A program made the translations under genes and the position numbers. This document shows, piece after piece, positions 1-64,000 of a stretch of 64,000 nt of DNA (its first letter is position 1; each line of letters begins with the position of its first letter). Origin of the DNA: Bilabrum cf. latius (Eukaryota); assembly GCA_965178125.1 (NCBI GenBank), contig OZ237749.1, positions 806,001 through 870,000 on the forward strand, given 5' to 3'. The notes below the pieces were generated by a model that was not told the DNA's origin, did no database searches, and saw only the letters and a program-made list of their open reading frames with translations.

Positions 1-1
1 A

Positions 2-3000
2 AGGCCGACTGCACCGCTGGTTGCGGAGTGGGCTGGAGTGTCGCCTGCAAACAACGAATACGTTGTGTCTATATCGGGCGAGGGCACGCCGAACACATTC
101 ACCTACTCCGTGAACGGAGCACCAGTGGGTACGGACCACGACATCGTTAGCTACAGCAATGGCAACACAGAGATTGGCACTCTTCGCTTGCGCTTCTACA
201 GCACTACTGGATTCAAGATAGGGTAGCGATGGAAGATTTCTCTGTCAAACAAAGGCGAGGTGTCTCTGCAATCGGACGGAGCCACCACTCCGTACTCCAC
301 ATCGAAAGAGCTGGTGGTCCAGTACGAAGGCACGGTCATGTCTTCGGCAAGCAGTAGCATTTATCACGTTGTTGTGGATTCTGTTGATGGGAGTTCTACC
401 TCTGGCGCAACCTTTTCGTACAGCAGGAACGGAGCAAGTTTTTCGGCAGGGGTTGGCTCTGGCGAGGCGGGTCAGGATATCGTCGCTGCAGGCAGCTCAG
501 CTTCCAATACCGAGTTGGGTAACGGACTAAAATTACTCTTTGCGGGAACACAGACCTATGCAGTTGGTCAAGCGTGGCAAATCGACGTAGGAAAACCATC
601 GGTGATTGTGTCAGCTAGCCCGACCTTTCAGGAGTTCAAGATGTGCGCTGGCAGAGGTCTGTGCGCTCCCGCCACTGGGCAATGTACCTGTTTTTCTGGC
701 TATGCTGGTTCAGACTGTTCGACCATATCGAGCGCAACCGAGACAACGAACCGTAATCCAGGCCATCTAGTGAGCGTGACTGAATCCACCTACACGGGGA
801 CAGTACTGGAGCTGAGCACGCAGAAGCCAGCTGCACCCGATTTCTACTTCATCCGCGCCTTGGCCAACGGCAAGCAGAAATTTGGAGTCAAGGGCAATGG
901 AGAAGTAGAATTTGAAGTTTTCACTGCCAACAAAGCCTAGCTTACTGGAGGTGCTACGGTTTCAGGTGGTGGCATCCAGGTAACTGACTTCGGCATCACT
1001 ATTGACGACGGGGGATTGCAGATTGACGACGGCGGTGCCAGCCTGTTCTCGAAAGCGGACAGAGTGAACACCCACATCATGTCAACAGTGCTCTCAGCAA
1101 CAGGCACTGATGGTTTCACCAATACGCTACTGAAGCTGGAGGTGGAACAGGGCTATCAAGCCTCGCCTACAACCACCAACTTCCACTTCATGCGACTGTA
1201 CGAGACCACAGTGTCGTCCGCGACACCGGCAGTGCGCACACCCACAGAGGTGTTCAATATTCGCGGTGACGGTCGTATCACCAGTCTCGCAGGAGGGGTC
1301 GAGGTCACAACCGGGGGAATCACCGTTTCGGACGGCGGGCTGAGTACCTCCACCAGTGATTCGACTGGAGTGCCACTTGAGGTTTCTCACACATCAAGTG
1401 CGTTCACCGGCTCTGCTTTTGTTGTCGATGTGCCAAATACGGCTCCCTCTTCTTCGTACAATATGATGCTGCTGCAGAGTGGCACAACCGAGCTTCTTCA
1501 GGTGCTGGGCAACGGCTAGCTACACGTGATGCAGGGAGGCATCGACGTGGATGCAGATGGCATCAACATCGATGCCGGAGGTTTGACAATCGCTGATGGT
1601 GGCGGTACCATCCACGATGGCGGTCTTGTTGTCAAGCTAGGCGGAACCACTATAGAATCGGGTGGCCTATTCGTGGACACGAATGGTGGATCAACGCTAT
1701 CAAATGATGACATCTCCGACCCAGCTGTAGTTGCTAGTGCTACTCACGCGTCATACACTGGAACCGTCCTCGACATTAGACACAATGTGGCTCAAGCAAA
1801 CGCAGACATGATTGTGGCTACAGCAGACCATGATGGTGTAGCGGATGAGGTATTCAAAGTGTACGGCAACGGTGACACATACATTGGAGTAACAGCAACA
1901 ACCCAACTTCGGCTTCAGCATGATGGCGAGATCAACATGGTCAACTCGGACTTTATTATACAAGCGGCAACGCCAGGGAAATCTGTGGAAATCGCATCTG
2001 CAGATGGATCTACAGCCAGTGGCCAAATCGTCCTCAACTCCGGTACAGCACCATCAACAGGAATCGTAAAAATAGCATCCGGCGAAGCCACCAACGGAGT
2101 CTCGGGACATGTCATCGTGCACTCGGGCACGGCCGCGTCTGGCGATGCCGGCTGGCTGGTGCTGTCGGCCGGCACCGCCACCAAGGGCGCGGCTGGAGCC
2201 GTGTCCATGTCGGCGGCATCGGCGTCGTCTGGGTCTGGCGGAGCTGTGTATGTGCAGGCCGGCACCAGCTCGGACAGCACGGCGGGCGTGGGCGGGCAGC
2301 TGTCTCTGGTGTCTGGCGGGTCGCCTGACGGGCGCGTGTCTGGCATTGTGACGGTGGCCAGCGCGGCGGGCACGGGGTTGGGCACGTCGGGCGCGGTGAC
2401 GCTGTCGAGCGGCGCAGGTGCCACCGGTGCATCGGGCGCTGTGACAGTGGAGTCAGGCAGTGCGGGGTCGGGCGGCACGGGCGCGGTATCAGTGGGGTCG
2501 GGCGCCAGCAGCAGGGCATCATCGGGCGCGGTGAGTGTGGGGTCGGGCGCGACGTCCAGCGCGGGGTCGGGAGCCGTGACCGTGGCCAGTGGCGCGGCCA
2601 CCAACGGAGTCTCGGGACATGTCATCGTGCACTCGGGCACGGCCGCGTCTGGCAATGCCGGCTGGCTGGTGCTGTCGGCCGGCACCGCCACCAAGGGCGC
2701 GGCCGGAGCCGTGTCCATGTCGGCGGCATCGGCGTCGTCTGGGTCTGGCGGAGCTGTGTATGTGCAGGCCGGCACCAGCTCGGACAGCACGGCGGGCGTG
2801 GGCGGGCAGCTGTCTCTGGTGTCTGGCGGGTCGCCTGACGGGCGCGTGTCTGGCATTGTGACGGTGGCCAGCGCGGCGGGCACGGGGTCGGGCACGTCGG
2901 GCGCGGTGACGCTGTCGAGCGGCGCAGGTGCCACCGGTGCATCGGGCGCTGTGACAGTGGAGTCAGGCAGTGCGGGGTCGGGCGGCACGGGCGCGGTGTC

Positions 3001-6000
3001 AGTGGGGTCGGGCGCCAGCAGCAGGGCATCATCGGGCGCGGTGAGTGTGGGGTCGGGCGCGACGTCCAGCGCGGGGTCGGGCGATCTGCAGCTGACGAGC
3101 GGTGATGCGGACTCCGGCACATCCGGAGCCGTGACCATGGCCAGTGGCGCGGCCACCAACGGAGTCTCGGGACATGTCATCGTGCACTCGGGCACGGCCG
3201 CGTCTGGCGATGCCGGCTGGCTGGTGCTGTCGGCCGGCACCGCCACCAAGGGCGCGGCTGGAGCCGTGTCCATGTCGGCGGCATCGGCGTCGTCTGGGTC
3301 TGGCGGAGCTGTGTATGTGCAGGCCGGCACCAGCTCGGACAGCACGGCGGGCGTGGGCGGGCAGCTGTCTCTGGTGTCTGGCGGGTCGCCTGACGGGCGC
3401 GTGTCTGGCATTGTGACGGTGGCCAGCGCGGCGGGCACGGGGTCGGGCACGTCGGGCGCGGTGACGCTGTCGAGCGGCGCAGGTGCCACCGGTGCATCGG
3501 GCGCTGTGACAGTGGAGTCAGGCAGTGCGGGGTCGGGCGGCACGGGCGCGGTATCAGTGGGGTCGGGCGCCAGCAGCAGGGCATCATCGGGCGCGGTGAG
3601 TGTGGGGTCGGGCGCGACGTCCAGCGCGGGGTCGGGCGATCTGCAGCTGACGAGCGGTGATGCGGACTCCGGCACATCCGGAGCCGTGACCATGGCCAGT
3701 GGTGCGGCCACCAACGGAGTCTCGGGACATGTCATCGTGCACTCGGGCACGGCCGCGTCTGGCGATGCCGGCTGGCTGGTGCTGTCGGCCGGCACCGCCA
3801 CCAAGGGCGCGGCCGGAGCCGTGTCCATGTCGGCGGCATCGGCGTCGTCTGGGTCTGGCGGAGCTGTGTATGTGCAGGCCGGCACCAGCTCGGACAGCAC
3901 GGCGGGCGTGGGCGGGCAGCTGTCTCTGGTGTCTGGCGGGTCGCCTGACGGGCGCGTGTCTGGCATTGTGACGGTGGCCAGCGCGGCGGGCACGGGGTCG
4001 GGCACGTCGGGCGCGGTGACGCTGTCGAGCGGCGCAGGTGCCACCGGTGCATCGGGCGCTGTGACAGTGGAGTCAGGCAGTGCGGGGTCGGGCGGCACGG
4101 GCGCGGTGTCAGTGGGGTCGGGCGCCAGCAGCAGGGCATCATCGGGCGCGGTGAGTGTGGGGTCGGGCGCGACGTCCAGCGCGGGGTCGGGAGCCGTGAC
4201 CGTGGCCAGTGGTGCGGCCACCAACGGAGTCTCGGGACACGTCATCGTGCACTCGGGCACGGCCGCGTCTGGCGATGCCGGCTGGCTGGTGCTGTCGGCC
4301 GGCACCGCCACCAAGGGCGCGGCTGGAGCCGTGTCCATGTCGGCGGCATCGGCGTCGTCAGGGTCTGGCGGAGCTGTGTATGTGCAGGCCGGCACCAGCT
4401 CGGACAGCACGGCGGGCGTGGGCGGGCAGCTGTCTCTGGTGTCTGGCGGGTCGCCTGACGGGCGCGTGTCTGGCATTGTGACGGTGGCCAGCGCGGCGGG
4501 CACGGGGTCGGGCACGTCGGGCGCGGTGACGCTGTCGAGCGGCGCAGGTGCCACCGGTGCATCGGGCGCTGTGACAGTGGAGTCAGGCAGTGCGGGGTCG
4601 GGCGGCACGGGCGCGGTATCAGTGGGGTCGGGCGCCAGCAGCAGGGCATCATCGGGCGCGGTGAGTGTAGGGTCGGGCGCGACGTCCAGCGCGGGGTCGG
4701 GAGCCGTGACCGTGGCCAGTGGCGCGGCCACCAACGGAGTCTCGGGGCATGTCATCGTGCACTCGGGCACGGCCGCGTCTGGCGATGCCGGCTGGCTGGT
4801 GCTGTCGGCCGGCACCGCCACCAAGGGCGCGGCCGGAGCCGTGTCCATGTCGGCGGCATCGGCGTCGTCTGGGTCTGGCGGAGCTGTGTATGTGCAGGCC
4901 GGCACCAGCTCGGACAGCACGGCGGGCGTGGGCGGGCAGCTGTCTCTGGTGTCTGGCGGGTCGCCTGACGGGCGCGTGTCTGGCATTGTGACGGTGGCCA
5001 GCGCGGCGGGCACGGGGTCGGGCACGTCGGGCGCGGTGACGCTGTCGAGCGGCGCAGGTGCCACCGGTGCATCGGGCGCTGTGACAGTGGAGTCAGGCAG
5101 TGCGGGGTCGGGCGGCACGGGCGCGGTGTCAGTGGGGTCGGGCGCCAGCAGCAGGGCATCATCGGGCGCGGTGAGTGTGGGTTCGGGCGCGACGTCCAGC
5201 GCGGGGTCGGGCGATCTGCAGCTGACGAGCGGTGATGCGGACTCCGGCACATCCGGCGTCGTGACCATGGCCAGTGGTGCGGCCACCAACGGAGTCTCGG
5301 GACATGTCATCGTGCACTCGGGCACGGCCGCGTCTGGCGATGCCGGCTGGCTGGTGCTGTCGGCCGGCACCGCCACCAAGGGCGCGGCTGGAGCCGTGTC
5401 CATGTCGGCGGCATCGGCGTCGTCTGGGTCTGGCGGAGCTGTGTATGTGCAGGCCGGCACCAGCTCGGACAGCACGGCGGGCGTGGGCGGGCAGCTGTCT
5501 CTGGTGTCTGGCGGGTCGCCTGACGGGCGCGTGTCTGGCATTGTGACGGTGGCCAGCGCGGCGGGCACGGGGTCGGGCACGTCGGGCGCGGTGACGCTGT
5601 CGAGCGGCGCAGGTGCCACCGGTGCATCGGGCGCTGTGACAGTGGAGTCAGGCAGTGCGGGGTCGGGCGGCACGGGCGCGGTATCAGTGGGGTCGGGCGC
5701 CAGCAGCAGGGCATCATCGGGCGCGGTGAGTGTGGGGTCGGGCGCGACGTCCAGCGCGGGGTCGGGAGCCGTGACCATGGCCAGTGGCGCGGCCACCAAC
5801 GGAGTCTCGGGACATGTCATCGTGCACTCGGGCACGGCCGCGTCTGGCGATGCCGGCTGGCTGGTGCTGTCGGCCGGCACCGCCACCAAGGGCGCGGCTG
5901 GAGCCGTGTCCATGTCGGCGGCATCGGCGTCGTCTGGGTCTGGCGGAGCTGTGTATGTGCAGGCCGGCACCAGCTCGGACAGCACGGCGGGCGTGGGCGG

Positions 6001-9000
6001 GCAGCTGTCTCTGGTGTCTGGCGGGTCGCCTGACGGGCGCGTGTCTGGCATTGTGACGGTGGCCAGCGCGGCGGGCACGGGGTCGGGCACGTCGGGCGCG
6101 GTGACGCTGTCGAGCGGCGCAGGTGCCACCGGTGCATCGGGCGCTGTGACAGTGGAGTCAGGCAGTGCGGGGTCGGGCGGCACGGGCGCGGTGTCAGTGG
6201 GGTCGGGCGCCAGCAGCAGGGCATCATCGGGCGCGGTGAGTGTGGGGTCGGGCGCGACGTCCAGCGCGGGGTCGGGAGCCGTGACCATGGCCAGTGGCGC
6301 GGCCACCAACGGAGTCTCGGGACACGTCATCGTGCACTCGGGCACGGCCGCGTCTGGCGATGCCGGCTGGCTGGTGCTGTCGGCCGGCACCGCCACCAAG
6401 GGCGCGGCCGGAGCCGTGTCCATGTCGGCGGCATCGGCGTCGTCTGGGTCTGGCGGAGCTGTGTATGTGCAGGCCGGCACCAGCTCGGACAGCACGGCGG
6501 GCGTGGGCGGGCAGCTGTCTCTGGTGTCTGGCGGGTCGCCTGACGGGCGCGTGTCTGGCATTGTGACGGTGGCCAGCGCGGCGGGCACGGGGTTGGGCAC
6601 GTCGGGCGCGGTGACGCTGTCGAGCGGCGCAGGTGCCACCGGTGCATCGGGCGCTGTGACAGTGGAGTCAGGCAGTGCGGGGTCGGGCGGCACGGGCGCG
6701 GTGTCAGTGGGGTCGGGCGCCAGCAGCAGGGCATCATCGGGCGCGGTGAGTGTGGGGTCGGGCGCGACGTCCAGCGCGGGGTCGGGCGATCTGCAGCTGA
6801 CGAGCGGTGATGCGAACTCCGGCACATCCGGCGCCGTGACCATGGCCAGTGGTGCGGCCACCAACGGAGTCTCGGGACATGTCATCGTGCACTCGGGCAC
6901 GGCCGCGTCTGGCGATGCCGGCTGGCTGGTGCTGTCGGCCGGCACCGCCACCAAGGGCGCGGCTGGAGCCGTGTCCATGTCGGCGGCATCGGCGTCGTCT
7001 GGGTCTGGCGGAGCTGTGTATGTGCAGGCCGGCACCAGCTCGGACAGCACGGCGGGCGTGGGCGGGCAGCTGTCTCTGGTGTCTGGCGGGTCGCCTGACG
7101 GGCGCGTGTCTGGCATTGTGACGGTGGCCAGCGCGGCGGGCACGGGGTCGGGCACGTCGGGCGCGGTGACGCTGTCGAGCGGCGCAGGTGCCACCGGTGC
7201 ATCGGGCGCTGTGACAGTGGAGTCAGGCAGTGCGGGGTCGGGCGGCACGGGCGCGGTATCAGTGGGGTCGGGCGCCAGCAGCAGGGCATCATCGGGCGCG
7301 GTGAGTGTGGGGTCGGGCGCGACGTCCAGCGCGGGGTCGGGTGATCTGCAGCTGACGAGCGGTGATGCGGACTCCGGCACATCCGGCGCCGTGACCATGG
7401 CCAGTGGCGCGGCCACCAACGGAGTCTCGGGACATGTCATCGTGCACTCGGGCACGGCCGCGTCTGGCGATGCCGGCTGGCTGGTGCTGTCGGCCGGCAC
7501 CGCCACCAAGGGCGCGGCTGGAGCCGTGTCCATGTCGGCGGCATCGGCGTCGTCTGGGTCTGGCGGAGCTGTGTATGTGCAGGCCGGCACCAGCTCGGAC
7601 AGCACGGCGGGCGTGGGCGGGCAGCTGTCTCTGGTGTCTGGCGGGTCGCCTGACGGGCGCGTGTCTGGCATTGTGACGGTGGCCAGCGCGGCGGGCACGG
7701 GGTCGGGCACGTCGGGCGCGGTGACGCTGTCGAGCGGCGCAGGTGCCACCGGTGCATCGGGCGCTGTGACAGTGGAGTCAGGCAGTGCGGGGTCGGGCGG
7801 CACGGGCGCGGTGTCAGTGGGGTCGGGCGCCAGCAGCAGGGCATCATCGGGCGCGGTGAGTGTAGGGTCGGGCGCGACGTCCAGCGCGGGGTCGGGAGCC
7901 GTGACCGTGGCCAGTGGCGCGGCCACCAACGGAGTCTCGGGACATGTCATCGTGCACTCGGGCACGGCCGCGTCTGGCGATGCCGGCTGGCTGGTGCTGT
8001 CGGCCGGCACCGCCACCAAGGGCGCGGCTGGAGCCGTGTCCATGTCGGCGGCATCGGCGTCGTCTGGGTCTGGCGGAGCTGTGTATGTGCAGGCCGGCAC
8101 CAGCTCGGACAGCACGGCGGGCGTGGGCGGGCAGCTGTCTCTGGTGTCTGGCGGGTCGCCTGACGGGCGCGTGTCTGGCATTGTGACGGTGGCCAGCGCG
8201 GCGGGCACGGGGTCGGGCACGTCGGGCGCGGTGACGCTGTCGAGCGGCGCAGGTGCCACCGGTGCATCGGGCGCTGTGACAGTGGAGTCAGGCAGTGCGG
8301 GGTCGGGCGGCACGGGCGCGGTATCAGTGGGGTCGGGCGCCAGCAGCAGGGCATCATCGGGCGCGGTGAGTGTGGGGTCGGGCGCGACGTCCAGCGCGGG
8401 GTCGGGCGATCTGCAGCTGACGAGCGGTGATGCGAACTCCGGCACATCTGGCGCCGTGACCATGGCCAGTGGTGCGGCCACCAACGGAGTCTCGGGACAT
8501 GTCATCGTGCACTCGGGCACGGCCGCGTCTGGCGATGCCGGCTGGCTGGTGCTGTCGGCCGGCACCGCCACCAAGGGCGCGGCCGGAGCCGTGTCCATGT
8601 CGGCGGCATCGGCGTCGTCTGGGTCTGGCGGAGCTGTGTATGTGCAGGCCGGCACCAGCTCGGACAGCACGGCGGGCGTGGGCGGGCAGCTGTCTCTGGT
8701 GTCTGGCGGGTCGCCTGACGGGCGCGTGTCTGGCATTGTGACGGTGGCCAGCGCGGCGGGCACGGGGTCGGGCACGTCGGGCGCGGTGACGCTGTCGAGC
8801 GGCGCAGGTGCCACCGGTGCATCGGGCGCTGTGACAGTGGAGTCAGGCAGTGCGGGGTCGGGCGGCACGGGCGCGGTATCAGTGGGGTCGGGCGCCAGCA
8901 GCAGGGCATCATCGGGCGCGGTGAGTGTGGGTTCGGGCGCGACGTCCAGCGCGGGGTCGGGAGCCGTGACCATGGCCAGTGGCGCGGCCACCAACGGAGT

Positions 9001-12000
9001 CTCGGGACACGTCATCGTGCACTCGGGCACGGCCGCGTCTGGCGATGCCGGCTGGCTGGTGCTGTCGGCCGGCACCGCCACCAAGGGCGCGGCTGGAGCC
9101 GTGTCCATGTCGGCGGCATCGGCGTCGTCTGGGTCTGGCGGAGCTGTGTATGTGCAGGCCGGCACCAGCTCGGACAGCACGGCGGGCGTGGGCGGGCAGC
9201 TGTCTCTGGTGTCTGGCGGGTCGCCTGACGGGCGCGTGTCTGGCATTGTGACGGTGGCCAGCGCGGCGGGCACGGGGTCGGGCACGTCGGGCGCGGTGAC
9301 GCTGTCGAGCGGCGCAGGTGCCACCGGTGCATCGGGCGCTGTGACAGTGGAGTCAGGCAGTGCGGGGTCGGGCGGCACGGGCGCGGTATCAGTGGGGTCG
9401 GGCGCCAGCAGCAGGGCATCATCGGGCGCGGTGAGTGTAGGGTCGGGCGCGACGTCCAGCGCGGGGTCGGGAGCCGTGACCGTGGCCAGTGGTGCGGCCA
9501 CCAACGGAGTCTCGGGGCATGTCATCGTGCACTCGGGCACGGCCGCGTCTGGCGATGCCGGCTGGCTGGTGCTGTCGGCCGGCACCGCCACCAAGGGCGC
9601 GGCTGGAGCCGTGTCCATGTCGGCGGCATCGGCGTCGTCTGGGTCTGGCGGAGCTGTGTATGTGCAGGCCGGCACCAGCTCGGACAGCACGGCGGGCGTG
9701 GGCGGGCAGCTGTCTCTGGTGTCTGGCGGGTCGCCTGACGGGCGCGTGTCTGGCATTGTGACGGTGGCCAGCGCGGCGGGCACGGGGTCGGGCACGTCGG
9801 GCGCGGTGACGCTGTCGAGCGGCGCAGGTGCCACCGGTGCATCGGGCGCTGTGACAGTGGAGTCAGGCAGTGCGGGGTCGGGCGGCACGGGCGCGGTGTC
9901 AGTGGGGTCGGGCGCCAGCAGCAGGGCATCATCGGGCGCGGTGAGTGTGGGGTCGGGCGCGACGTCCAGCGCGGGGTCGGGAGCCGTGACCGTGGCCAGT
10001 GGTGCGGCCACCAACGGAGTCTCGGGACATGTCATCGTGCACTCGGGCACGGCCGCGTCTGGCGATGCCGGCTGGCTGGTGCTGTCGGCCGGCACCGCCA
10101 CCAAGGGCGCGGCTGGAGCCGTGTCCATGTCGGCGGCATCGGCGTCGTCTGGGTCTGGCGGAGCTGTGTATGTGCAGGCCGGCACCAGCTCGGACAGCAC
10201 GGCGGGCGTGGGCGGGCAGCTGTCTCTGGTGTCTGGCGGGTCGCCTGACGGGCGCGTGTCTGGCATTGTGACGGTGGCCAGCGCGGCGGGCACGGGGTCG
10301 GGCACGTCGGGCGCGGTGACGCTGTCGAGCGGCGCAGGTGCCACCGGTGCATCGGGCGCTGTGACAGTGGAGTCAGGCAGTGCGGGGTCGGGCGGCACGG
10401 GCGCGGTATCAGTGGGGTCGGGCGCCAGCAGCAGGGCATCATCGGGCGCGGTGAGTGTGGGGTCGGGCGCGACGTCCAGCGCGGGGTCGGGAGCCGTGAC
10501 CGTGGCCAGTGGTGCGGCCACCAACGGAGTCTCGGGACACGTCATCGTGCACTCGGGCACGGCCGCGTCTGGCGATGCCGGCTGGCTGGTGCTGTCGGCC
10601 GGCACCGCCACCAAGGGCGCGGCTGGAGCCGTGTCCATGTCGGCGGCATCGGCGTCGTCTGGGTCTGGCGGAGCTGTGTATGTGCAGGCCGGCACCAGCT
10701 CGGACAGCACGGCGGGCGTGGGCGGGCAGCTGTCTCTGGTGTCTGGCGGGTCGCCTGACGGGCGCGTGTCTGGCATTGTGACGGTGGCCAGCGCGGCGGG
10801 CACGGGGTCGGGCACGTCGGGCGCGGTGACGCTGTCGAGCGGCGCAGGTGCCACCGGTGCATCGGGCGCTGTGACAGTGGAGTCAGGCAGTGCGGGGTCG
10901 GGCGGCACGGGCGCGGTATCAGTGGGGTCGGGCGCCAGCAGCAGGGCATCATCGGGCGCGGTGAGTGTGGGGTCGGGCGCGACGTCCAGCGCGGGGTCGG
11001 GCGATCTGCAGCTGACGAGCGGTGATGCGAACTCCGGCACATCCGGCGCCGTGACCATGGCCAGTGGCGCGGCCACCAACGGAGTCTCGGGACATGTCAT
11101 CGTGCACTCGGGCACGGCCGCGTCTGGCGATGCCGGCTGGCTGGTGCTGTCGGCCGGCACCGCCACCAAGGGCGCGGCTGGAGCCGTGTCCATGTCGGCG
11201 GCATCGGCGTCGTCTGGGTCTGGCGGAGCTGTGTATGTGCAGGCCGGCACCAGCTCGGACAGCACGGCGGGCGTGGGCGGGCAGCTGTCTCTGGTGTCTG
11301 GCGGGTCGCCTGACGGGCGCGTGTCTGGCATTGTGACGGTGGCCAGCGCGGCGGGCACGGGGTCGGGCACGTCGGGCGCGGTGACGCTGTCGAGCGGCGC
11401 AGGTGCCACCGGTGCATCGGGCGCTGTGACAGTGGAGTCAGGCAGTGCGGGGTCGGGCGGCACGGGCGCGGTATCAGTGGGGTCGGGCGCCAGCAGCAGG
11501 GCATCATCGGGCGCGGTGAGTGTAGGGTCGGGCGCGACGTCCAGCGCGGGGTCGGGAGCCGTGACCGTGGCCAGTGGTGCGGCCACCAACGGAGTCTCGG
11601 GACATGTCATCGTGCACTCGGGCACGGCCGCGTCTGGCGATGCCGGCTGGCTGGTGCTGTCGGCCGGCACCGCCACCAAGGGCGCGGCTGGAGCCGTGTC
11701 CATGTCGGCGGCATCGGCGTCGTCTGGGTCTGGCGGAGCTGTGTATGTGCAGGCCGGCACCAGCTCGGACGGCACGGCGGGCGTGGGCGGGCAGCTGTCT
11801 CTGGTGTCTGGCGGGTCGCCTGACGGGCGCGTGTCTGGCATTGTGACGGTGGCCAGCGCGGCGGGCACGGGGTCGGGCACGTCGGGCGCGGTGACGCTGT
11901 CGAGCGGCGCAGGTGCCACCGGTGCATCGGGCGCTGTGACAGTGGAGTCAGGCAGTGCGGGGTCGGGCGGCACGGGCGCGGTGTCAGTGGGGTCGGGCGC

Positions 12001-18000: not shown

Positions 18001-18454
18001 TTTGCAGGGCGGGTCCTCCAGCAGCACCGTAGCAGGCTCAGTGGTGCTTCAGGGAGGCGCTGCAAGTGGGGGGGCAACGGCCGGTGGTATCTAGCTGGGT
18101 GGGAACGGCATCGTTTTCGATAGCTTCGTGGCCGGCACTGCCACGCTCACATTCACCACAACTTCTGTGGCAGCAGGAGCTACCCTGTCAGAAGCAGCCT
18201 CCATGGGGACGACTGACATCCCGGAGTACTTCCAGCTGTCTGCTACTGACTTGGTCATGATTCAACCGCAGTTCCAGTCCGAGATGACTGGTGTTCACGC
18301 GTCGGTGCAAGGGGCTGACGAAGGGACGTTTGGAGCCAGGGGTGCAATCGTTGGGGCACGAAAGCTCCTTGTATCGTTTACCAATTCAGGCAGCGGGACA
18401 CTCACAGCGCATAGCGGTGGGACTTTCTTGGTGATTGTTGTGAAGTTGAATTGA
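2..18454 (+). CDS. Giant Gly/Ser/Ala-rich repeat protein (>6,100 aa, 5' end outside window) with an EGF-like motif and a 30-unit probable beta-solenoid array; likely extracellular fibre or adhesin
   Basis: ORFs 38-226, 260-940, 1016-1519, 1526-18094 and 18128-18454 share one frame and are separated only by TAG (224, 938, 1517, 18092). First TGA is at 18452-18454. EGF-like CAGRGLCAPATGQCTCFSGYAGSDC at ~644-718; recurring F/L-x-V/I-x-G-N/D-G motifs and GG-x-x-I/V-x-x heptads precede the array. Confidence 0.85.
2081..17830 (+). repeat. Coding tandem array of 30 units: 20 of 510 bp (170 aa) and 10 of 555 bp (185 aa)
   Basis: Unit starts at about 2081, 2591, 3146, 3701, 4211, 4721, 5276 ... 16766, 17276. 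Long units carry an extra 45 bp encoding DLQLTSGDA(D/N)SGTSG. Units differ only by scattered SNPs. Confidence 0.97.
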
Positions 18455-18575: not shown

Positions 18576-19465
18576 ATGGCTGCAAAAGCTAGCCCAGCCT
18601 CTGTTGTACCACCGCAAGTTCCACTTCGAGAGGGGGCTGCTGCTTATGTGGCGAAGAGCGCTGGCAGGGCGTCGACACCATCGATTGAGGATGTCGATCT
18701 GACTGTCCCTCTACGAACCCCATCCAAGCCACCAGTGGCAAGAAGCATGTACGACTTGCTCATTCATGAATATATTAGCTACCTAGTGAGTTCATAATTC
18801 GTTTCTGAATGGCGTGCTTCAGTCCAATATGATTGCTTCGCATCCATCGCGATCCTCTGTCCGTTCATTCAGGCACGGCGAGAGCCCGTATCCAGAGGAG
18901 CGCGCATTGCGTACTTTTAGGAAATTGAAGACTTTGGGAGGTCAATCGGGAGGCGCTGGGTTGAGCGGTAAGCATTTTCGACTGCACCTGCCTTGCGAGC
19001 TGCATATTCACTGAACTCGTTCAGTTGGCCTCCTCTGGTGACGCAGATTAGTGCAGAGCCGCCCACGGTTGGGTACGCCATTAGACGTCTTCAAGTTTTT
19101 GTGCAAGGATGCCTGGACTTCGCTCTACGGAAAGGCGATAGATCGACTGAGGACTGATCACGCCGTGAGATGATTTGGGCACCCAGCCTCCCCCGGTTCC
19201 AAGCCCTAGCATTCTTCGCTGGCCTTGCAATTTCATCTTTACTTTTGTGCAGACGGTATTCCAGCTCCACGACAACGCATTCCCGCTGTTTGCGCACTTG
19301 TCAGTGGCGGCTGGTGCAACTGACGGAGGAAGGCGGCAGAGCCTTGCGATGCTAGCCGCTGGCCACTTGAATGGCATGCTATCAGCTTTTGGTTATGAGG
19401 GTCATACTGTCCACTCCCATGTCGAGGGAAGCATGCTGAAGCTGGAGGTTACGTTGAACCAATGA
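18576..19465 (+). CDS. TRAPPC6: TRAPP complex subunit Trs33/TRAPPC6-like, 4 exons
   Basis: Spliced product reads ...VARSMYDLLIHEYISYL / ARREPVSRGARIAYF*EIEDFGRSIGRRWVER / LVQSRPRLGTPLDVFKFLCKDAWTSLYGKAIDRLRTDHA / TVFQLHDNAF..., matching Trs33 motifs (LDIMKFICKDFW..F.KQIDNLRTNH, LQDN.F). Donors GTGAGT, GTAAGC, GTGAGA; CAG acceptors; one in-frame TAG at 18918; ends TGA. Confidence 0.85.
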
Positions 19466-19651
19466 TGCTTTCGGCAATGAAGTGTTGCCAGCCATCGCAT
19501 GATCCCCTCGATTGCGCATCCTATATGTGTATGTAATTTAATTTGGCATTCTAGTCTCGAACTCAGTCATGTCCGCCCAAGTCATACGACCTAAACAGGC
19601 GAGCAAGTTTCAGCCAAGATTTGCCAAGTGTTCCGCCAGCAGGCCCGCTGC

Positions 19652-54100: not shown

Positions 54101-55700
54101 AAGGGAGGCTGGTGAACCTGTTGTTGTCCAGCCTCACGAACCGCATCGAGGGCCTCTGCGTATCTGCAAATCCGGTGGGTATCGTGGCGAGCTGGTTGCC
54201 GTGCAGGAGCAGCTCCTCAACGGAGGGCGTGTCGTCAAGGGCGTTGCCCAATGCCGTCAGTCTCGAATCGAACATATGCACCGTCGAAAGGCTGTGCAAA
54301 GCAGGTGAGGACGGTACTGTTGGGAGAGCCAAAGGCACCGTGTTACCGTGCAAATACAGCTACTCCAGGGCAGTGTTGGTCTGGAAGAAGCACCCGTCGA
54401 TCGAGCTGATCGGGTTGTCTGAAATATTGACGAAGTTGAGCTGGGAGAGGCCACACAGCTCATTGCCAATGCTAGAGATGGCATTCCCGCCCGCAAAGAT
54501 CCGTCCAAGATTCGGCAAACCGGACAGCTACGGAAATGCCGTCATTCCGTTGTACTGGGCGACGAAAGACTCGAGAGCTACTGCCCCGCTGACCCACGAC
54601 CCGATCGCCACGCCTGCACCTGACAGCATCCGAGAAGCTTGCAGCACCCGCAGGTTGGGAGGCGCAGATTGCAGGCCTTGCGGCGCAGACAGACTCACCC
54701 TAGTCCCGCTCACCTCAAGCCTCTCCAGCCAAGCATGGGATGCCAGCTCTGTGGGCAGGTAGCCCCGAACTTCGCTGTTCCACTCTACATCGATCTGGTA
54801 CAGTCTGGGCAGGTCAGCTAGCGCCGCACCGATGTTCTCCAGTTGTCCATGCACCTGCTGATTCCTAATCGAGAGCATTGTCACGTGTGCACCGGCGTCA
54901 ACGTCACCGTGCTCGAAACCGCAGCTGATCCCGCCCCAGTCCTCGCACATGTGCGGCGACTTATTGGTCTGGTTCAGCTCCCATCGACGGACGCCCTCGT
55001 CTAAATTGCTGCGCCAGCGCCTGCGTTCTCCCTGCGTGTTCGTAGAGAGCGCCTGGTACAGCTATACGACGGCATCCCGCTCGGAGTCTTTCACCTGGAG
55101 GTGCTCCACGTCAGCCGAAGGCGAGAGCCACGCTCGCTCGTCGACGGCGCGCCATTCCACGCTGTCATCAACTGTCTGGTTGCGGTACCTCCAATCCAGC
55201 CTCATTTCACCTGGCCCACCGCCGTTGCTGATTTCGCAGGAAATGTGCGCCAGCTGGCCACGCGCAAATTCGTACCAGCCGAACTCTCCCTGCCCAAATC
55301 TTGAATTTTCGTATTCCAACCTGTGGTTTAGCCAACAGCGGCCCCGATCGTCGTGTATTAACCGAAACCTGTACTCACCGTCGCGAGGAATTTGCGCTGT
55401 GGCGTTCATTCTGATCGCCCACCTATAGTTCAACCCCCACGGTCTGTTGTCGCCTGTAGTCCGGAACGAAGCACTCCGATACCATCGTCGTCCAAGCAAC
55501 GTTGTTCCGGGTGATTCTGGCCAAACACCGCTTCCACTATTTGTGCTCCATACCTTAAAGATTGTGCCAAACGAGAGGCCAGACGGTGGTTCCAAATCCA
55601 TCCAATCGACTGATGAGAACGCCAAAGCAGCATGATGAGAGGTCAGAACGCCAACCAAGAGCGTAAACAAATTACACAAGAGTTTCTTGCCAACTGACAT
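45162..55700 (-). CDS. Giant receptor-like membrane protein (3,512 aa): signal peptide, PA14-like domain, LRR N-cap and LRRs, Cys-rich (TNFR/GCC2-GCC3-like) repeats, multi-pass TM region
   Basis: 17 track ORFs share one frame and are joined across >20 TAG codons with no TAA or TGA in the linkers I read. WAIRMNATAQIPRDGEYRFRLIHDDRGRCWLN (PA14-like); SERDAVV*LY...CEDWGGISC (LRR N-cap); many LxxLxLxxN; CxxCxPGxF repeats; hydrophobic TM segments; ends TGA. Confidence 0.8.
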
Positions 55701-55987: not shown

Positions 55988-58437
55988 TCACCCTTGCCGC
56001 GGTGCAGTGTCGTTTATACTATGAAATCCGCTGTCGCTGCGGCTTCCCTCTCCCTGGACCGCAGTCAGCGCCCCTCCAGACCTCCCGCTACTCTCCTAGG
56101 AGAGCAACCCATCCGACGGGCGGAAGCTCCTCCCGCTGCTGCCCGCTGTCATCTCACCACGGCCTCCCTACCCCAACCCAGCAACCGGTTGCGCGCCTGT
56201 ATCCCCACTCCAGCCACCGCCGCTGCCGCTGTTTGAGCCTACACCGCGGGCACCGGCCCTGCCCGCTTCAGCCTTCGACTAATCGCCGCGCTGCTGCTGC
56301 TGCTGCTGGCGCTGCTGACCCCACTCGCCCCCGGAAGGCGCATAGCTGCCGGGCAGCACTCCCATCGAGGCCTGACCCGTAGACTCCATCGTGGTGATCC
56401 TGCCAGAAGCAACCCCTGGCGAGGCCTCGCTCAGCAGCGCCTCCTGGGATGGCCCTTGCAGCCCCCTCCCCCCCCTCGACGGCATCGACAGGCCCCTGCC
56501 CTCCTTCCCACCCATTGTTCCCTGGAAATTGTCATCCATAGCCGCCCCCAGCAGCGCCTCTGCTGCGTGGGGATCCTCCAGCGTCCCCACCACGGGGGCA
56601 CTCGCGGTGTCCTCCCCCCCCTCCATGATCCTGGCGCTGTCCTCGAGGCTGGTTCCCATCGTCTCCTTCACGAAGAACAGGACCAGCAGCAGCCCACTCA
56701 GCGAGAAAAACGTGCAGATAAGGTACATGGAAGCAACACCAGTCCTCTGCGGCTTACCCGTGCCGCCGGGGGCGACCTGGTCAGACACATTCCCGAGCAA
56801 TCGGATGAGGGAGAGAGTGGTCTGGGAGAGGAGCAGCACGCACACCCAGTTCACTGCCATGAACAGCCCGAAGGCCTTGCCCCTGATCTTGGTCGGGATC
56901 ATCTCCGACAGGAGAGTGAAGGTCGTCACGCCGGGGCCCACAGCAAACCCGGCCAGGTATATGGTCACGCATGCCACAGCGGCCCACGCCGCACGCTGGT
57001 CGTTGTTGTCCATCGTGTACAAGGTGGCCGACAGCCCAAGCAGGGAGAGGGTCATGATGGAGTACCCAGCGATCAGCAGCGCCCTCCGGCCCACCCGATC
57101 CAGCAGCCACAGCCCCAGCACGGTTGCTACTACGTTGGCCGCGAAGAACCCCGTGGTCTTGCCTCTGGTGTGGTCCTCCCCCGCCAGCTCCAGGATGGAG
57201 CTCGAGTAGAAAATCACAGTGTTGATCCCGGACAACGTCTGCACGACCATGAGGCCGCACCCCAGGGCCACCACCCCGGCGTGGTGGGGGTCGCACAGCT
57301 CGGTCCATGACTCGAAGAAGCCCTCCTCCTGCGCGCTCCCTGTCCCTCGCATTCGCCTCTCCCTGCGCTCCTGGTCCACCTCCCTCTGCATCGACTGGAT
57401 CTCGTCCGCGATTTCGTAGCTCAGAGGGCGCACGTTAAGCAGGCTGCGGGGTTGTGACGAGCGATCAACTGGAAGGATGGTTGGTTGTGCGGGCTTGGTC
57501 GCAGAGCAAAACACGGCATTCTGTGAGTAGTCGTGTGTTGCATGCATGCGAAGGGGTAGACCCCCGAGTTGAGGACATGGCAAGAGGGGCATGCTCAGTG
57601 CTTCGAGCGATTACACGGCAAAATTACGCGCACAAACAGCAGCCGAGCACACTCACAGCGTCTGCACCTTTCGCCTGCCTCCGCGCTAGCGAAGCAGCCA
57701 CCGAGGGCTCTCGGGGATGAAAGCCCAGGTGGTCAACCACAGAACAATAGGGGAGAGCATCCCGAGAACGAACGTGTATTTCCACCCGCCATCCACGTAC
57801 TCGACGAGCAGAAAACCAGAGAGCCCCGTCAGAAAGATCCCTATCGTGATGAATTGCTAGTGCAAGCCCGTGAGGAAACCCCTGCGGCCGAGACAGAAAT
57901 GGGGTCACAAGCAAGATATCATTTTAAACCATGGTTAATTTGTGCAATTATGTACCGTTGCATGGCTTACCTGATCTCGCACGGTGCCATCTCTGCAAGC
58001 AGAACTGGAGCAACCAGCCCTCCGACTCCACAGCCAAGCCCAGAGACAAAGCGCCCGGCATAAAACATCGGAATGATCGCGTTTGAATTAGCGGCAGCAC
58101 ACAAAATCGTCCCAACTGCATAGAGGGGGGCAACTACCCACAGCAAAGTAGCACGGTAGCCAACCCTGTCTGGGATCACCTGCATGAAGGACCCAAGCGC
58201 AGCCCCGATGACCAGCACGGTCGTGAGCAGCTGCTTCACTTCTACTTCAGCCTTTGGACTGACGTCGAACTCAAGCCCGCCCTGCGGACAATTCTTGTCG
58301 TCATTGTAGCACACCAATGGGTTCATCACTGCGGTGGCCCATCCGCTAGCCAGTGAGCATCCAGTGGCTAAAAAAATTGCCCCTACATAAAGCAAGCTAG
58401 GTATAGCATCTTCGTCAATATTGTCTTGGACGCCCAT
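55988..58437 (-). CDS. MFS sugar porter (GLUT-like), 3 exons
   Basis: DRVGYR, AGRFVSGLGCG, LAEMAPCEIR/GFLTGLH*QFITIGIF, PESPRWL, QTLSGINTVIFYS, LDRVGRR, SEMIPTKIRG, KETMG. Introns ~57970-57883 and ~57657-57444. TAG at 57857, 56279, ~56168, ~56096; TGA at 55988. Confidence 0.9.
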
Positions 58438-58589
58438 GTCTTGTGAGGGCGACCGATTAGGATAGGATATGCTGCAGTTGCCGCAAGCTTGGTGGATTGG
58501 CGCCGCGCGAGCAGCGTGCGGAACCATCGCGCACTGTGTTCAAGCGCCGAAGCAAGCCCCCCTGCTAGCACAAGCCACAGCGTGATCTT

Positions 58590-61500
58590 ATGTCCCAACT
58601 TCCTCAAGATAATGCTACCCAAAGTTAGCTTGGCTGGCATCCGCTTGCTGTGGCTGATTTCGCCTCGCTGGCAGAAGACTTGAACCAGACGCTCGAGTAG
58701 AGGTCTTCGCGATTGAAGAGCTAGGAGCAAGGCAAGGCATTGTTCGAACTAATGGAGACTTTCTTTGACGGGATGATATCTACGTTCCACAATGCTCGCC
58801 ACTGCTCTGCGGCGTGTTCTGAGGGGCAAGGGCAGGTCGGGGAGGTAGCTTACAGAACCGCGCAGGTCCTCGCCGGGGATCTCCGCGGGCATCTGATTGA
58901 TAAGACCCGCAAAGGGCTCGGTTCAAAATTGCTGTGGTATGCAGTGTTCCAGCGAATCCGAGAATTTACTATTGCGACGGTTACCAAAGCTGTCTTGTCG
59001 GCAAGGGATCTTGGCGAACTGCTGCGCTCGGTCTCAGAGTCTTGGACAGACATGAAACTCATTGCAGGCTGGTTCAGGCTACTCTTACAAACACTAGATG
59101 CCGATGTACAGGTTGACGGCGAGCCGCTGCTGAAGAAACAGTCAACTACTGCGCTGCGCGATCTGGACGAAAACGGAGCGGCAGGTGCTGGCGTCCGTAG
59201 CAAAGCACCCAGGTACGCCCATGCTGCCGAGGGTGACCCGTACAACCTAGACAAAGAACCGTTTGAATCAGACAGGCCGCATTCTCCGTGCTCGGTGTAC
59301 AACTGGTGCCTGCGCGCCTTCCGGGCCGGGCTCTTGCCCAGGGGCAAGACCTGGCTGCTGGCCGCCATCCTGGACGGCGCCAGGGCACACAGCCTGGGAA
59401 TGGATGCGACCCACCTGAGGAACTGCGTGCAGTGCGTGGTCGCACTGGGTGCTCTCGAGACCCAAGAAGCGTGCAGGATACGCAACCGCCACCAGATGCG
59501 CCGGTTCCTGGCCTCGCCCACGTGCGTGCGGCACAACCGGCTGCACAGGGAGGAGCTCGCAGGGCCCGTGGCGGAGGCCCTCCTGAGCGATGCGCAGACC
59601 CGGTCGCACGCCTTGAAGGAGAGCAGCAATCCAGTTGAGTTCTGTGCCGCTGTGAGTCGTCCCCCTTTCTCGTCGTCTCGCTTGCCTCAATTGCGCAGGC
59701 CACCAGAGACCGTAGGACCCGCGACCGTGTCTTGTCCAAGAGATGGTTTGCAGCGCATCGATTTTTGTTTGTTTGCAGTTCAGGCTGTTCTCAATGACCG
59801 CAGGCAAGCTCTTTCACTAATGATGCGCTAGACGCGGCTCGCATGTACCTTCACGACTCGGTGGTGACAGACCTCGAGCGGCGCATGCTGGATGCAGTCA
59901 CCCTGCCGCACCTGGACTGGGTGCTCTCTGCACCGCAGGTGGGCCTGCAAGCCATCATACTTGAGGACAAGAAAGACGATGCAGCCAGAATATATGATGT
60001 TCTCAGGCGGATCAAGAGCCCAGAGGCAACTCCTAGGCTAGAGCAAGCCGTGCTCTCTGCCATGACCACTGCCCTGGAGCTGCTGCGAGACGCCAGGGCC
60101 GGCAAGCTCTCTGGCCTGTAGCAGGAGCCCAAAGCCTCCGATGGTACAGATCTGCCCCCGCCCTAGCTCGCATCGATGCGAAGGAAGCACAAGAAAGAGC
60201 TGGACAGGCTGCTATCTTCCGATCCTCCTTTCGTTGGTGAGTTGATTGCAAAGGTGTCTGCCTGGATTAGCTGCTTGGTGCAAAGCCCGCATGTCGGCAA
60301 ACATATCGTCACCAGTACCCGCCCCTGCGTCAATGGGCCTACCCCTGAGCTTCGATCGATTTTCCTCCGCCCCTCTCTGGTCTCCCCTCGCAGGCTCCGT
60401 GGTGAACAGGTACCAGCAGGTGCGCGGGATGATCCACGAGAGCATGGACAAGCTCCAGGTGGCTCTCCGCGCGCTAGACAGGGCCACCGGCCGTTTCATG
60501 GACAAGGATCTAGGCATCCACGGCTGCAAGGTGACCATGGAGCGGCTGACGGTGGACTACATGGACAGGCTGCTGCGTCCGGGCAGCAAGGTACTCGACC
60601 TAGAGACGCAGCTGGGTGACGTGCTCGACCTAGTGCACTGCCAGCCAAGCAAGGACATTTTCCTGAGCTGCTACGGCAAGTCGCTCGAGTCCAGGCTCAT
60701 CTCGAACAACAGCGCAAGCAGCGAGATGGAGAAGGCCGCGCTGGCTCGGATCAAGGCCATCGTGGGCCCGCAGGAGTCGAACCGCATCGAGGCGGTGCTG
60801 ACCGACTTTCAGCAGTCCATCCTCGGCCTCGAGGGGCTGGACGAGGCGTACCAGGCAGCGCTCAGGGAACAAGTCGATAGACCGCAGGAGAGTGGCGCCA
60901 CGGCCACTGCTGCAGGTGCATCGGCGAACGGAGGGTAGCAGCTGGTTCCCATGGAGGTGCGGTGCCAGGTGCTGTGCCAAGCCAAGTGGACCAGGAAGGT
61001 GACTCGGCTCACTCCGCCTCCCTCGCTGAGTGCAGCGGCCGGCTTTATCACGCAGCACTATAGAGGGGGTCGCGCGGACGAGAGGTCGCTGGTGGTGTCC
61101 TTCAACGATGGCTCAGCGGAAGTTGACCTGGTGCTGGGCAAGAGCACGCACACTCTCGTGGCGCAGCCGCTGCTTGCCGTGGTGCTAATGTGGATGCAGG
61201 AGGGCGGCGCCATGTCCTGCGAGGCAGTTGCAGAGAGGAGCGGCATGGACGTGTCTCTCGTCTTGGATCTCGTGCGGCCCCTGGTCTTCACGGTGAGCAA
61301 GGTGGGCAGCAGGTGCATCAACGTGTTCAGGATAAGGCGGTGGGGAGACGAGGAGGTGCTCGGGGACAAGGCGCAGAAGATGAAACGCAACCCCAAGCAC
61401 TTCCAGGCCAAGTCGGAGCTTATGATAAACCCTCGGTTCAAGAACCCTCTGCGCCGAATCCGCATCCCTAGGATCAAGGTGACCTCGAATGAGGAGGACC

Positions 61501-61745
61501 GCAAGGAGGAGGATACGCAGACGCAGTTCGCTAGATCCAAGGTGCTAGAGGCGGCCATCGTGAGGCTGCTCAAGTCCAGAAAGGAGATGCGTATGAATGA
61601 CGTGCTCCTCGAGACCATCAAGCTTGTCAGCGCCAGGTTCACGCCAGACTCTAGGCAGATCCGGGACCGCATCGAGTACCTCATCGACCAGGAGTACATG
61701 GAGAGGGACGAGAGCAACCCCATGGTGCTCAAGTACGTGGCGTGA
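58590..61745 (+). CDS. Divergent cullin-family protein
   Basis: SKDIFLSCYGKSLESRLI (cullin homology); LEAAIVRLLKSRK and IRDRIEYLIDQEYMERDESNPMVLKYVA (neddylation domain). Probable introns from ~59652 and ending ~60393; 6 in-frame TAG (58626, 58698, 58722, 59829, 60119, 60936); ends TGA. Confidence 0.85.
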
Positions 61746-61880: not shown

Positions 61881-62864
61881 TCACGACACGACGCAGCAGC
61901 CACCGCCGCCCTGCACGACGCCATCGTGCTACTCGCTGGGACCGTCTTCCAATGAGTACTTCTCTCCACCAGAATCGCCGGCAGTGCCTCCCCCGGCTGT
62001 CCCCGCGGTGTCCTTCTGGCTCGCACCGTTGTCAGCGTCCCACACGCTCCTCGCTCCCCCCGTGTCCACCTTCACGGGGCGGCTCTTTCTACTCGCACTA
62101 CTGCCAGAACCACACTTATCCAAATCACTGCTGGTGTGCTTGAAGACAATTTGCGTGGCGCTGCCGCGATTCTTCAAGCCAGCGCCGCCGGGTGACATCG
62201 CGTACGAATCCGCAAAGTCCGAACTGGGCTACTATCCAGCACTACCGCTCGGTTTCGAGCCACCAGCTCCACCCATCTTACATGAATGCGTTCTCTTTCC
62301 CTTTGAAGTGGTCTACGGGCTCAATGCAGCATCAGCAGACCGACCTATCCCGGTCGAGACGCTGCCGGCTTGAGTTGCGGTGGTTCCAGACTCCACGAGA
62401 CCAGCCCCGTTCGCAGCCGCAGCCCTACATCCAGCTCTGGTGCTCTTGGATGAGCTTTGGCTAGTACGTGACCCTCTACCAGTGTCCATGGCGTCCTCCC
62501 CGAGCGTCATTCGAAGAAACTTGAGCTAATTGGCATTGGGAGCCGAGGCACGCCTTATTCGGCCTTCGCTGACAAAGTGCTGGTTTCCTTCATTCGCATC
62601 AAGACTATCTGCGGCTAAAGCGGCTGCAGCAGCTGCACCAGCCCTGCCAGCGTCTGCATCCCGTGCAACCGGCTGGTGCAGCGCTGCTCCAGCGTCTCGC
62701 ACAGCCTGCTTTATAGCCCTACCATCAGTATGCGAGCGCCTTTTATGAGCTGCAAGCATTCCAAGACCTCTTTCATGGCTGTTGAACTCTATGCTATCAA
62801 CTGCAGGTGCCCCAACTGCAGAGGAACGCCTGTTCGAGGTGGCCGCGCTCGTTTGCTTTTGCAT
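61881..62864 (-). CDS. Hypothetical disordered protein ending in a CaaX motif (GGCCVVS)
   Basis: Same-frame pieces joined across TAG at 62526, 62313, 62232, 62229 and 61929; ends ...GGGGCCVVS-TGA. Start is uncertain (62864 or 62966, or an upstream exon). Confidence 0.6.
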
Positions 62865-63309: not shown

Positions 63310-64000
63310 TCAGTGGAACCGTTGAGGCCGCCTTGGCCTGTCAGCTTCATCGGCGACGCCTACTATGGGAGAGCCTCTGGCGCCTTCACTTCCCGCCCAA
63401 CCGAACGATGCTTGCCCTGCAGACTCAATAGAGGCAGTCATTCCAGTCATTCCAGCTGGAACTGGTCCTTCATTGGTTATGCTGCCGTGCGCTCCTTGGT
63501 GACCGGAACCTTCGGTGAGGTCTCTGAGAGCACTGCCACCACCAGCGGGTGCGCTAGGTCTGCCTTCCCCTTCACCAATCTATCCGCTTGCACTTGCACC
63601 CGCCTGCATTGGAGATCCGGGTGGCATTTGAACACCTGAAGAACCCCTCGCGCTCCCAGGACTGCCGGTAGCCCCTGCTCCTCCGAAAGCACTTGCCCCG
63701 CCGAGCAACGAGGGACCGGCACTCACGGACGGCTTGGCATCGACGTCCATGCTCGCCATGGAATCGGGCGCGTCCAAGTAGGCAGAAGTGGAGGAGGAAG
63801 AGGATGAAGATTTCCCTCTGTCTCCCTGCCTCCACCTGTCGGAGCCGGTTGGGGACTGGTGCCCATTGGCGATTGCTGCTTCGCCGCCGCGAGGACTTGG
63901 GGACCCCGCAGATCGAGCACTGTGTTCTCCGGGTGGCTTGACCTGCATGGTGGAGTGCTCCGCCACCCTACCAGACTCCGGGTCGATCGCCCACAGGGGC
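63310..64000 (-). CDS. 3' part of a low-complexity Ser/Gly/Ala protein running off the window
   Basis: ORF 63580-63966 continues through TAG at 63580 to TGA at 63310-63312. Confidence 0.45.

Follow-up and report, generated by a model that had tools for sequence, protein, structure and literature searches.

The reassignment of UAG alone in nuclear genomes is known from just a handful of lineages, to go by the passages on code variants in PMC5304391 and PMC11687900. The fornicate Iotanema spirale reads UAG as glutamine (Gln) and keeps UAA and UGA as stops, with UAA as its primary stop, as the account of its code by Panek et al. (2017, PMC5304391) describes, and UAG likewise means Gln in Protocruzia tuzeti and in two phyllopharyngean ciliate lineages named in the code-variant discussion of McGowan et al. 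(2024, PMC11687900). That discussion also names lineages in which UAG and UAA both mean Gln (UAR=Gln), namely, hexamitid diplomonads, Streblomastix, ulvophycean green algae, Amoeboaphelidium, and many ciliates. In this study, we analyzed a 64-kb stretch of eukaryotic nuclear DNA with a G+C content of 58 to 73% (the window, by which we mean this whole stretch) and found TAG in frame within conserved, expressed, and spliced genes. TAG is kept in spliced, polyadenylated transcripts, and TAG and CAG interchange between close relatives. We consider it very likely that the window is nuclear DNA of a GC-rich, Cafeteria-like flagellate in which UAG is a sense codon, most likely for Gln, and in which UGA (mostly) and UAA end genes.

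The UAG-to-Gln code of the ciliates named above is listed as NCBI translation table 15. The window organism resembles those ciliates in reading UAG as Gln and in not having UAA reassigned to Gln; they are alveolates, whereas the closest named relative here is Cafeteria. The code-variant discussion of PMC11687900 describes repeated independent UAG changes within one ciliate class, whereas here we see one lineage with at least two members. The likeness to Iotanema, as far as the parts of that report on its code go, extends to the full set of assignments (UAG as Gln, UAA and UGA as stops), to discovery through in-frame UAG in conserved genes, and to a free-living flagellate as the bearer. Unlike Iotanema, which is a metamonad and has UAA as its main stop, the window organism is placed in the stramenopiles and is GC-rich with TGA as its main stop; the Iotanema work used a transcriptome, whereas the present case has genomic DNA with introns plus RNA contigs. 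With the UAR=Gln lineages, the window organism shares the capture of a stop for Gln, presumably through a change in the tRNA-Gln anticodon. Those lineages reassign UAA too, whereas here TAA ends genes and is not used in frame.

Once TAG is read through, long frames appear on both strands of the window. The frames were trimmed to their likely coding parts and spliced exons were added, giving 19 frames from 17 genes (19,216 codons) that hold 84 in-frame TAG, 459 CAG, and 132 CAA codons; the share of UAG among glutamine-type codons is about 12%. Counted from the first ATG on, the 16 stop-to-stop frames contain 85 TAGs. Over the 19,216 codons there are no frameshifts, and each frame runs to TGA or TAA without an interruption by either triplet, although this last absence follows from the frame definition itself, which limits its value as evidence for our reading. 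The initial annotation of this DNA had reported more than 70 in-frame TAGs in at least 15 genes on both strands, between positions 224 and 63582 and without frameshifts between fragments; our counts agree, and so do the positions of the outermost TAGs (224 and 63582). The sites that it quoted are also exact, including AAG CAG CAG TAG at 33254-33265 in the gene at 30260-35953 (AAGCAGCAGTAG), TAGCAG at 60119 and 60936, and TAGTAG on the minus strand at 62229-62234. Its counts of successive fragments were too low: 17 for the gene at 45162-55700, which has 22 TAGs and therefore 23 fragments; 8 for that at 30260-35953, with 9 TAGs and 10 fragments; and 7 for 25951-30195, again with 9 TAGs and 10 fragments.

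The in-frame TAGs exceed what chance would give. The longest frame outside the repeat gene described below grows from 582 codons in the standard code to 3,544 when TAG is read as sense, compared with 582 when TAA is so read and 1,031 when TGA is. Summed open reading frames (ORFs) of at least 300 amino acids come to more with TGA as sense (26,301 amino acids) than with TAG as sense (21,503 amino acids). The larger sum with TGA arises because TGA is the commonest stop triplet in this GC-rich DNA, and the sum by itself cannot identify TAG as the reassigned codon; what identifies it is the great length of the frames together with homology. The two off-frames of 10 coding frames contain 326 and 245 TGA triplets (and 31 and 44 TAA), so that thousands of codons without an in-frame TGA mark real coding frames. 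Additionally, the codon-position G+C pattern persists across the TAGs, and the G+C content at third codon positions is high in every inter-TAG fragment of the gene at 45162-55700.

Transcript evidence comes from contigs of sequencing runs that were compared with the window over 19500-39499. A contig of run X1 spans all of this interval with no differing letter and is free of joints; this contig is DNA, and the window may have been taken from it. In contigs of runs X5, X7, and X8, which belong to two studies, six short segments with GT..AG ends on the minus strand are missing, and a run of T at 19537 in X7 and X8 is the poly(A) tail end of the transcript of a putative ribosomal protein L38 gene. 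Because of these splice joints and the poly(A) end, we take the X5, X7, and X8 contigs to be derived from RNA, though no run is on record as RNA. The splice joint of GAS8/DRC4 is seen in X5, X7, and X8 but not in X1, and both joints of the gene for the glucosidase II beta subunit are present in the same three runs. The joints give full models for three genes, with three introns in the L38 gene, one in GAS8, and two in the glucosidase II beta gene. GAS8 (20371-21957, minus strand; Pfam GAS, E = 8e-48; PDB DRC4, E = 1.6e-80) has exons at 21957-21728 and 21626-20371 around a GT..AG intron at 21627-21727, a TAG at 21496-21498, and a TGA stop. The glucosidase II beta gene (22091-23630, minus strand; Pfam PRKCSH_1, E = 1e-28, and PRKCSH-like, E = 8e-11) has three exons, introns at 23124-23219 and 23314-23431, and an ATG at 23630-23628; its TAGs are codon 2 (23625-23627) and codon 28 (23547-23549). 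Its spliced translation runs from a signal peptide, within which TAG is codon 2, through to HDEL, which is followed by TGA. The gene that we call L38 from a reading of its spliced translation lies at 19537-20239 on the minus strand and has four exons, introns at 19742-19850, 19913-20012, and about 20075-20222, and 71 codons with no TAG before a TGA stop.

RNA contigs cover the GAS8 TAG with no other letters, and contigs of X7 and X8 cover 23432-23641 and 23432-23635 of the glucosidase II beta gene, again with no other letters. Thus, 3 of the 84 in-frame TAGs (one in GAS8 and two in the glucosidase II beta gene) are covered by RNA contigs, and all are unchanged. The initial annotation had proposed retention of TAG in mRNA as a check, and it is seen at these three TAGs in spliced RNA contigs of X5, X7, and X8. 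Since the RNA contigs keep the three TAGs, editing, assembly error, and pseudogenes are ruled out at those sites. The wider supposition that the TAGs are never translated, being assembly or base-call errors, parts of pseudogenes, or targets of RNA editing to CAG, has nothing positive in its favor, although it is a point against our reading that the RNA contigs give the majority sequence only, can hide minority variants, and reach just these 3 of the 84 sites. We assign this supposition a negligible probability: no letter differs between the X1 DNA contig and the RNA contigs of the three runs, TAG alone among the stop triplets interrupts the frames, the genes concerned are spliced and conserved, and the pattern recurs, at other sites, in a relative recovered from two further metagenomes.

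The same contigs allow several observations on gene structure and provenance. The six introns seen in RNA contigs (19537-23641, minus strand) are short, at 96 to 148 bases, with GT..AG ends. What these contigs show of 5' untranslated regions is very short too: those of the glucosidase II beta gene begin 5 to 11 bases before the ATG. A spliced leader was considered for a loose 5' end of 17 bases, which turned out to be the upstream L38 exon at 20223-20239; trans-splicing was set aside as well, no leader sequence having been found. Over 19500-39499, identical sequence, with no differing letter, occurs in runs X1 to X8 under four coded organism labels in four studies. The flagellate may live in the cultures of other organisms, or it may have been filed under several names.

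The amino acid inserted at TAG can be read from conserved columns and from close relatives. At the GAS8 TAG, 14 of 15 homologues have Q and the remaining one has H, with no E or K, and the three solved DRC4 chains shown (PDB) have Q as well. The second informative column is in a sugar-porter gene on the minus strand, whose internal exon frame at 57653-57904 holds two in-frame TAGs and whose other exons lie at 57967-58539 and 55988-57610, the last exon matching Pfam Sugar_tr (E = 5e-39). In PDB alignments, its first TAG faces Q in GlcP and GLUT5, A in GLUT9, and I in OCTN2; OCTN2 is a non-sugar carrier, so that Q stands in two of the three sugar porters shown. We take this column to be the substrate-site Gln of the family. 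The initial annotation had named a conserved Gln in GAS8 and in sugar porters, and both columns support it, as Q in 14 of the 15 GAS8 homologues and Q in GlcP and GLUT5.

Close relatives give direct comparisons at individual sites. The metagenome contig L001 encodes a GAS8 with 88% protein identity and about 75% DNA identity to that of the window, and the two share synteny over four genes, those for glucosidase II beta, GAS8, L38, and a TRAPP component (L001 positions 1-3600 against 19249-22332). A CAG in L001 faces the window GAS8 TAG, whereas a TAG in exon 1 of L001 GAS8 faces a window CAG. The TRAPP-component gene (plus strand) has an upstream exon frame at 18798-18968 with one in-frame TAG, which faces Q in L001, and TRAPP-domain exons at 19042-19170 and 19169-19462, on which the Pfam TRAPP match lies; conservation with L001 suggests that the upstream frame is probably coding. 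Between the window and L001 there is thus Gln at all three coding-frame TAG sites, two of them seen as TAG opposite CAG; eight other sites marked X in this comparison were omitted as belonging to antisense or off-frame alignments. Further sites come from six protein fragments of relatives (P0060 to P0065), which match the 3,512-codon gene at 45162-55700 with 76 to 96% identity. Four of the six span five TAG sites, at which they have Q, Q, Q, Q, and S. Over all close-relative TAG sites, Gln is found at seven of eight.

When log-odds were summed over six columns (five in the DUF1415 gene plus that of GAS8), Q scored 6.6 bits, K 2.5, A 0.2, and E -0.1; the lead of Q comes mainly from GAS8. The GAS8 and sugar-porter columns, the close-relative sites, and the log-odds all put Q first, in keeping with the initial annotation, which had read UAG as Gln. 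Given that TAG is a sense codon, we regard Gln as highly probable. The call is made from the two conserved columns and seven of the eight close-relative sites, and several observations count against it. In PDB alignments, the residues opposite the second sugar-porter TAG are N, Q, and E. The five in-domain TAG columns of DUF1415 are variable and polar, with R, L, E, A, and A the commonest residues and Q at no more than 10%; these columns come from an exhaustive search that found 691 homologues at E values of 0.001 or less, of which the best 150 plus 2 were aligned (a word-index search gave 2). Two TAGs of the L001 tafazzin face L and T in the single solved homologue. Altogether, 10 columns beyond those of GAS8 and the first sugar-porter TAG are variable and favor no one residue, and most distant-homologue columns do not point to Gln. 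Among the close-relative sites, the fragment site with S lies in a variable stretch, and five of the eight sites are known from predicted proteins, not DNA. The kinase TAGs of L001 fall outside aligned blocks, and the cullin TAG of the window lies within an insert to which the solved cullins do not align. PDB matches were found for none of DUF1415, the frame at 58263-59867, and the TRAPP upstream exon.

These variable columns are also what speaks for another amino acid at UAG, of which Glu or Lys would be likeliest: E, K, and A outscore Q in several of the five DUF1415 columns, the second sugar-porter column admits E and N, and the code-variant discussion of PMC11687900 gives Glu or Leu as the meaning of UAG in some ciliates. 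We see only a slim chance of this, as neither E nor K occurs among the 15 GAS8 homologues, two of the three sugar porters have Q at the first column, the relatives favor Q with TAG opposite CAG twice, and the summed log-odds place Q 4 bits over K. Pyrrolysine at TAG was rejected, since TAG occurs too often for it and Gln fills the conserved columns.

The relatives also bear on the age of the change. L001 and L002 come from two different metagenomes, and both are syntenic with the window. Three of their frames stay open only if TAG is sense, namely, those of a tafazzin-like gene with 5 TAGs and of a kinase gene with 10 and a third frame with 3, so the code is common to at least two diverged members of the group. 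The code change predates the split of the window organism from the relative with an 88% identical GAS8. Past the syntenic block, L001 carries the tafazzin-like and kinase genes and the window carries a giant repeat gene. No relatives of GAS8 were found in the prokaryote genome contigs scanned. Among the protein fragments, P0065 ends exactly before a window TAG (residue 2790), and the end of P0060 and the start of P0062 flank a window Gln (residue 2313), a break that a TAG at this place in the relative would explain. Standard gene callers appear to be cutting the relatives' proteins at TAG.

The two other stop codons were considered in the same way. TGA ends 15 of the 17 genes and TAA the other 2; GAS8 and the glucosidase II beta gene have TGA at conserved C termini, and in the L38 gene, which is outside the 17, TGA precedes the poly(A) site by 115 bases. 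TAA has probably been kept as a stop too. A code in which UAG and UAA both mean Gln, with TAA merely rare in a GC-rich genome, would fit the scarcity of TAA, the rarest stop triplet in the window with 128 occurrences on the plus strand, and the fact that only two genes end in it. Such a code is nevertheless very improbable. With TAA also read as sense, the long frames stay separate and each of the two genes that end in TAA gains about 25 codons (only 26 in the gene at 37168-39801); if TAA stood to TAG as CAA stands to CAG, about 24 in-frame TAA codons would be expected, and none is needed; and the conserved last residues of GAS8 are followed directly by TAA in L001 and by TGA in the window. 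UAG alone is reassigned, with UGA and, on indirect evidence, UAA kept as stops. This is what the initial annotation had claimed, and with no gene interrupted by TAA or TGA and the L001 GAS8 ending in TAA, the claim holds.

A TAG lies four codons before the final TGA in two genes, at 36920 in the DUF1415 gene and at 25965 in the gene at 25951-30261. Each may mark a place where TAG used to be the stop and is now translated. Context-dependent stop and sense codons have been reported for some ciliates and, in the case of UAA, for Blastocrithidia. A dual UAG of this kind, read as Gln within genes and as a stop at some gene ends depending on context, would agree with the two TAGs close to a final TGA, with several TAGs in unconserved C-terminal tails (for example, three in the sugar-porter tail), and with the circumstance that the true 3' end is known for the L38 gene only. 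Short tails after TAG are, however, equally expected from former TAG stops after full reassignment. No gene in the window needs TAG as a stop, and the three genes supported by RNA end in TGA at conserved C termini. We find a dual meaning improbable.

As to mechanism, cytoplasmic ribosomes of this organism would read UAG as sense, most likely as Gln. By analogy with other UAG-to-Gln lineages, the decoder would be a tRNA-Gln whose anticodon has changed from CUG to CUA, a single base change, and eRF1 would no longer recognize UAG while still recognizing UAA and UGA. The window itself encodes no eRF1; a tRNA scan found no tRNA genes in the window or in the relatives' contigs L001 to L007, and the window has no matches to Rfam families.

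The placement of the organism comes from GAS8. The two best matches to the window protein have 98% and 88% identity, the next is P0003 with 54%, which represents a 90%-identity cluster that holds Cafeteria roenbergensis proteins, and oomycete GAS8 is about 41% identical. In a maximum-likelihood tree, the window protein, P0001, and P0002 form a clade (support, 100) inside an 11-row clade with Cafeteria roenbergensis (Shimodaira-Hasegawa-like approximate likelihood ratio test [SH-aLRT], 99), and oomycetes and Paraphysomonas fall outside this clade; the tree was a quick one of 44 rows, from one gene and with few named rows, which tells against too much weight on it. From this sequence comparison, a Cafeteria-related (bicosoecid-like) stramenopile is a likely identity. 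The initial annotation had guessed that the organism lies outside the known UAG-only lineages, and the position of GAS8 in a clade with Cafeteria roenbergensis agrees. The P0003 cluster also holds a DRC4 protein labeled Symbiodinium sp. KB8, probably a Cafeteria-like contaminant in a dinoflagellate assembly. A euglenozoan, green-algal, or dinoflagellate origin of the window was rejected, the "Symbiodinium sp. KB8" DRC4 sharing its 90%-identity cluster with Cafeteria proteins.

Cafeteria roenbergensis/C. burkhardae (PMC6972860) thus has the closest named GAS8, at 54% identity to the cluster representative and in the same well-supported clade. NCBI holds the Cafeteria GAS8 as a full-length protein of 476 amino acids. 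The Cafeteria nuclear genome is GC-rich, with few short introns, and we know of no report of a departure from the standard code in Cafeteria. The window organism and its relative with 88% identity use TAG as sense.

The remaining genes of the window are consistent in their use of TAG. Besides GAS8/DRC4, glucosidase II beta, DUF1415, the sugar porter, and the TRAPP component, Pfam names a tubulin-tyrosine-ligase-like enzyme (its TTL domain is of the TTLL1/TTLL9 family in a protein atlas, which was uninformative on taxonomy), a cullin, a membrane protein with LRR and ephrin-receptor-like domains, and a giant tandem-repeat gene that includes an EGF-like domain; several long genes, rich in Ala, Ser, and Gly, have no family match. 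The DUF1415 gene (36029-36934, plus strand; 301 codons; Pfam DUF1415, E = 3e-27) has eight in-frame TAGs and ends in TGA. The LRR and ephrin-receptor-like gene (45162-55700, minus strand; Pfam LRR_4, LRR_8, and Ephrin_rec_like), whose 22 in-frame TAGs were counted above, also ends in TGA, and a plus-strand gene with weak LRR matches at 43576-45033 (485 codons, 3 TAGs) ends in TAA. The C-terminal half of the cullin gene (60291-61745, plus strand; Pfam Cullin and Cullin_Nedd8) has its TAG at 60936 and ends in TGA. Three genes are without a family: an Ala/Ser/Gly-rich one at 25951-30261 on the minus strand (about 1,436 codons, 10 TAGs after the first ATG, TGA stop), in which the frame signal continues across the TAGs, one at 30260-35953 on the plus strand (about 1,897 codons, 9 in-frame TAGs, TGA stop), and one at 37168-39801 on the plus strand (877 codons, 4 TAGs), which ends in TAA. 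The stop-to-stop frames of the first two, 25951-30300 (minus) and 29666-35953 (plus), overlap head to head by about 630 bases (29666-30300), with candidate starts at 30261 or 30195 on the minus strand and at 30260 on the plus strand.

The giant gene (2-18454, plus strand) runs off the 5' end of the window and has four TAGs (224, 938, 1517, and 18092) and a TGA stop. After the EGF-like domain, about 30 tandem units of 510 or 555 bases fill 1520-18094, with a self-identity of 0.81 at a lag of 510, and encode repeats rich in Gly, Ser, Ala, Val, and Thr in a product of more than 5,500 residues. The repeats were measured by autocorrelation; Tandem Repeats Finder gave a blank, units of 510 or 555 bases being beyond its longest period. 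The strand opposite the giant gene is also open, over 5,377 codons, probably as a by-product of repeat composition. In the translation, the TAG at 224 stands in a motif, KIG[TAG]RW, that recurs about 115 residues on in the same protein as VGQAW.

Our literature search, in which most subscription journals and supplements were outside the scope, revealed no change of the nuclear code among stramenopiles, bicosoecids, or MAST groups. Stramenopiles are not among the lineages named in the code-variant discussion of PMC11687900, and the sole match for bicosoecids concerned, in the part that matched, a mitochondrial code (PMC6723347). The sequencing runs date from 2025, and a description of this code may exist or be forthcoming. 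The initial annotation had suggested an undescribed reassignment, which this search supports as far as the lineage goes; the code itself is not new. What would be new is the lineage and the type of genome, GC-rich and mainly TGA terminated, in which the code would have arisen independently. More specifically, we lean toward an independent UAG-to-Gln change in GC-rich, TGA-terminating, Cafeteria-like bacterivorous flagellates with at least two species-level members, one that occurred without AT pressure. AT pressure is the force usually invoked for stop-codon capture. A stramenopile case that is GC-rich and has TGA as its main stop would test ideas on stop capture and on the uncoupling of UAG from UAA. 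In practical terms, standard gene callers break up the proteins of this lineage at each TAG, and public collections already hold pieces of them (P0060 to P0065), so that annotation, orthology, and metagenome binning of the group will go wrong as long as the correct code is not applied. If the cultures behind the sequencing runs exist, this organism would be a possible free-living model with a UAG-only code.

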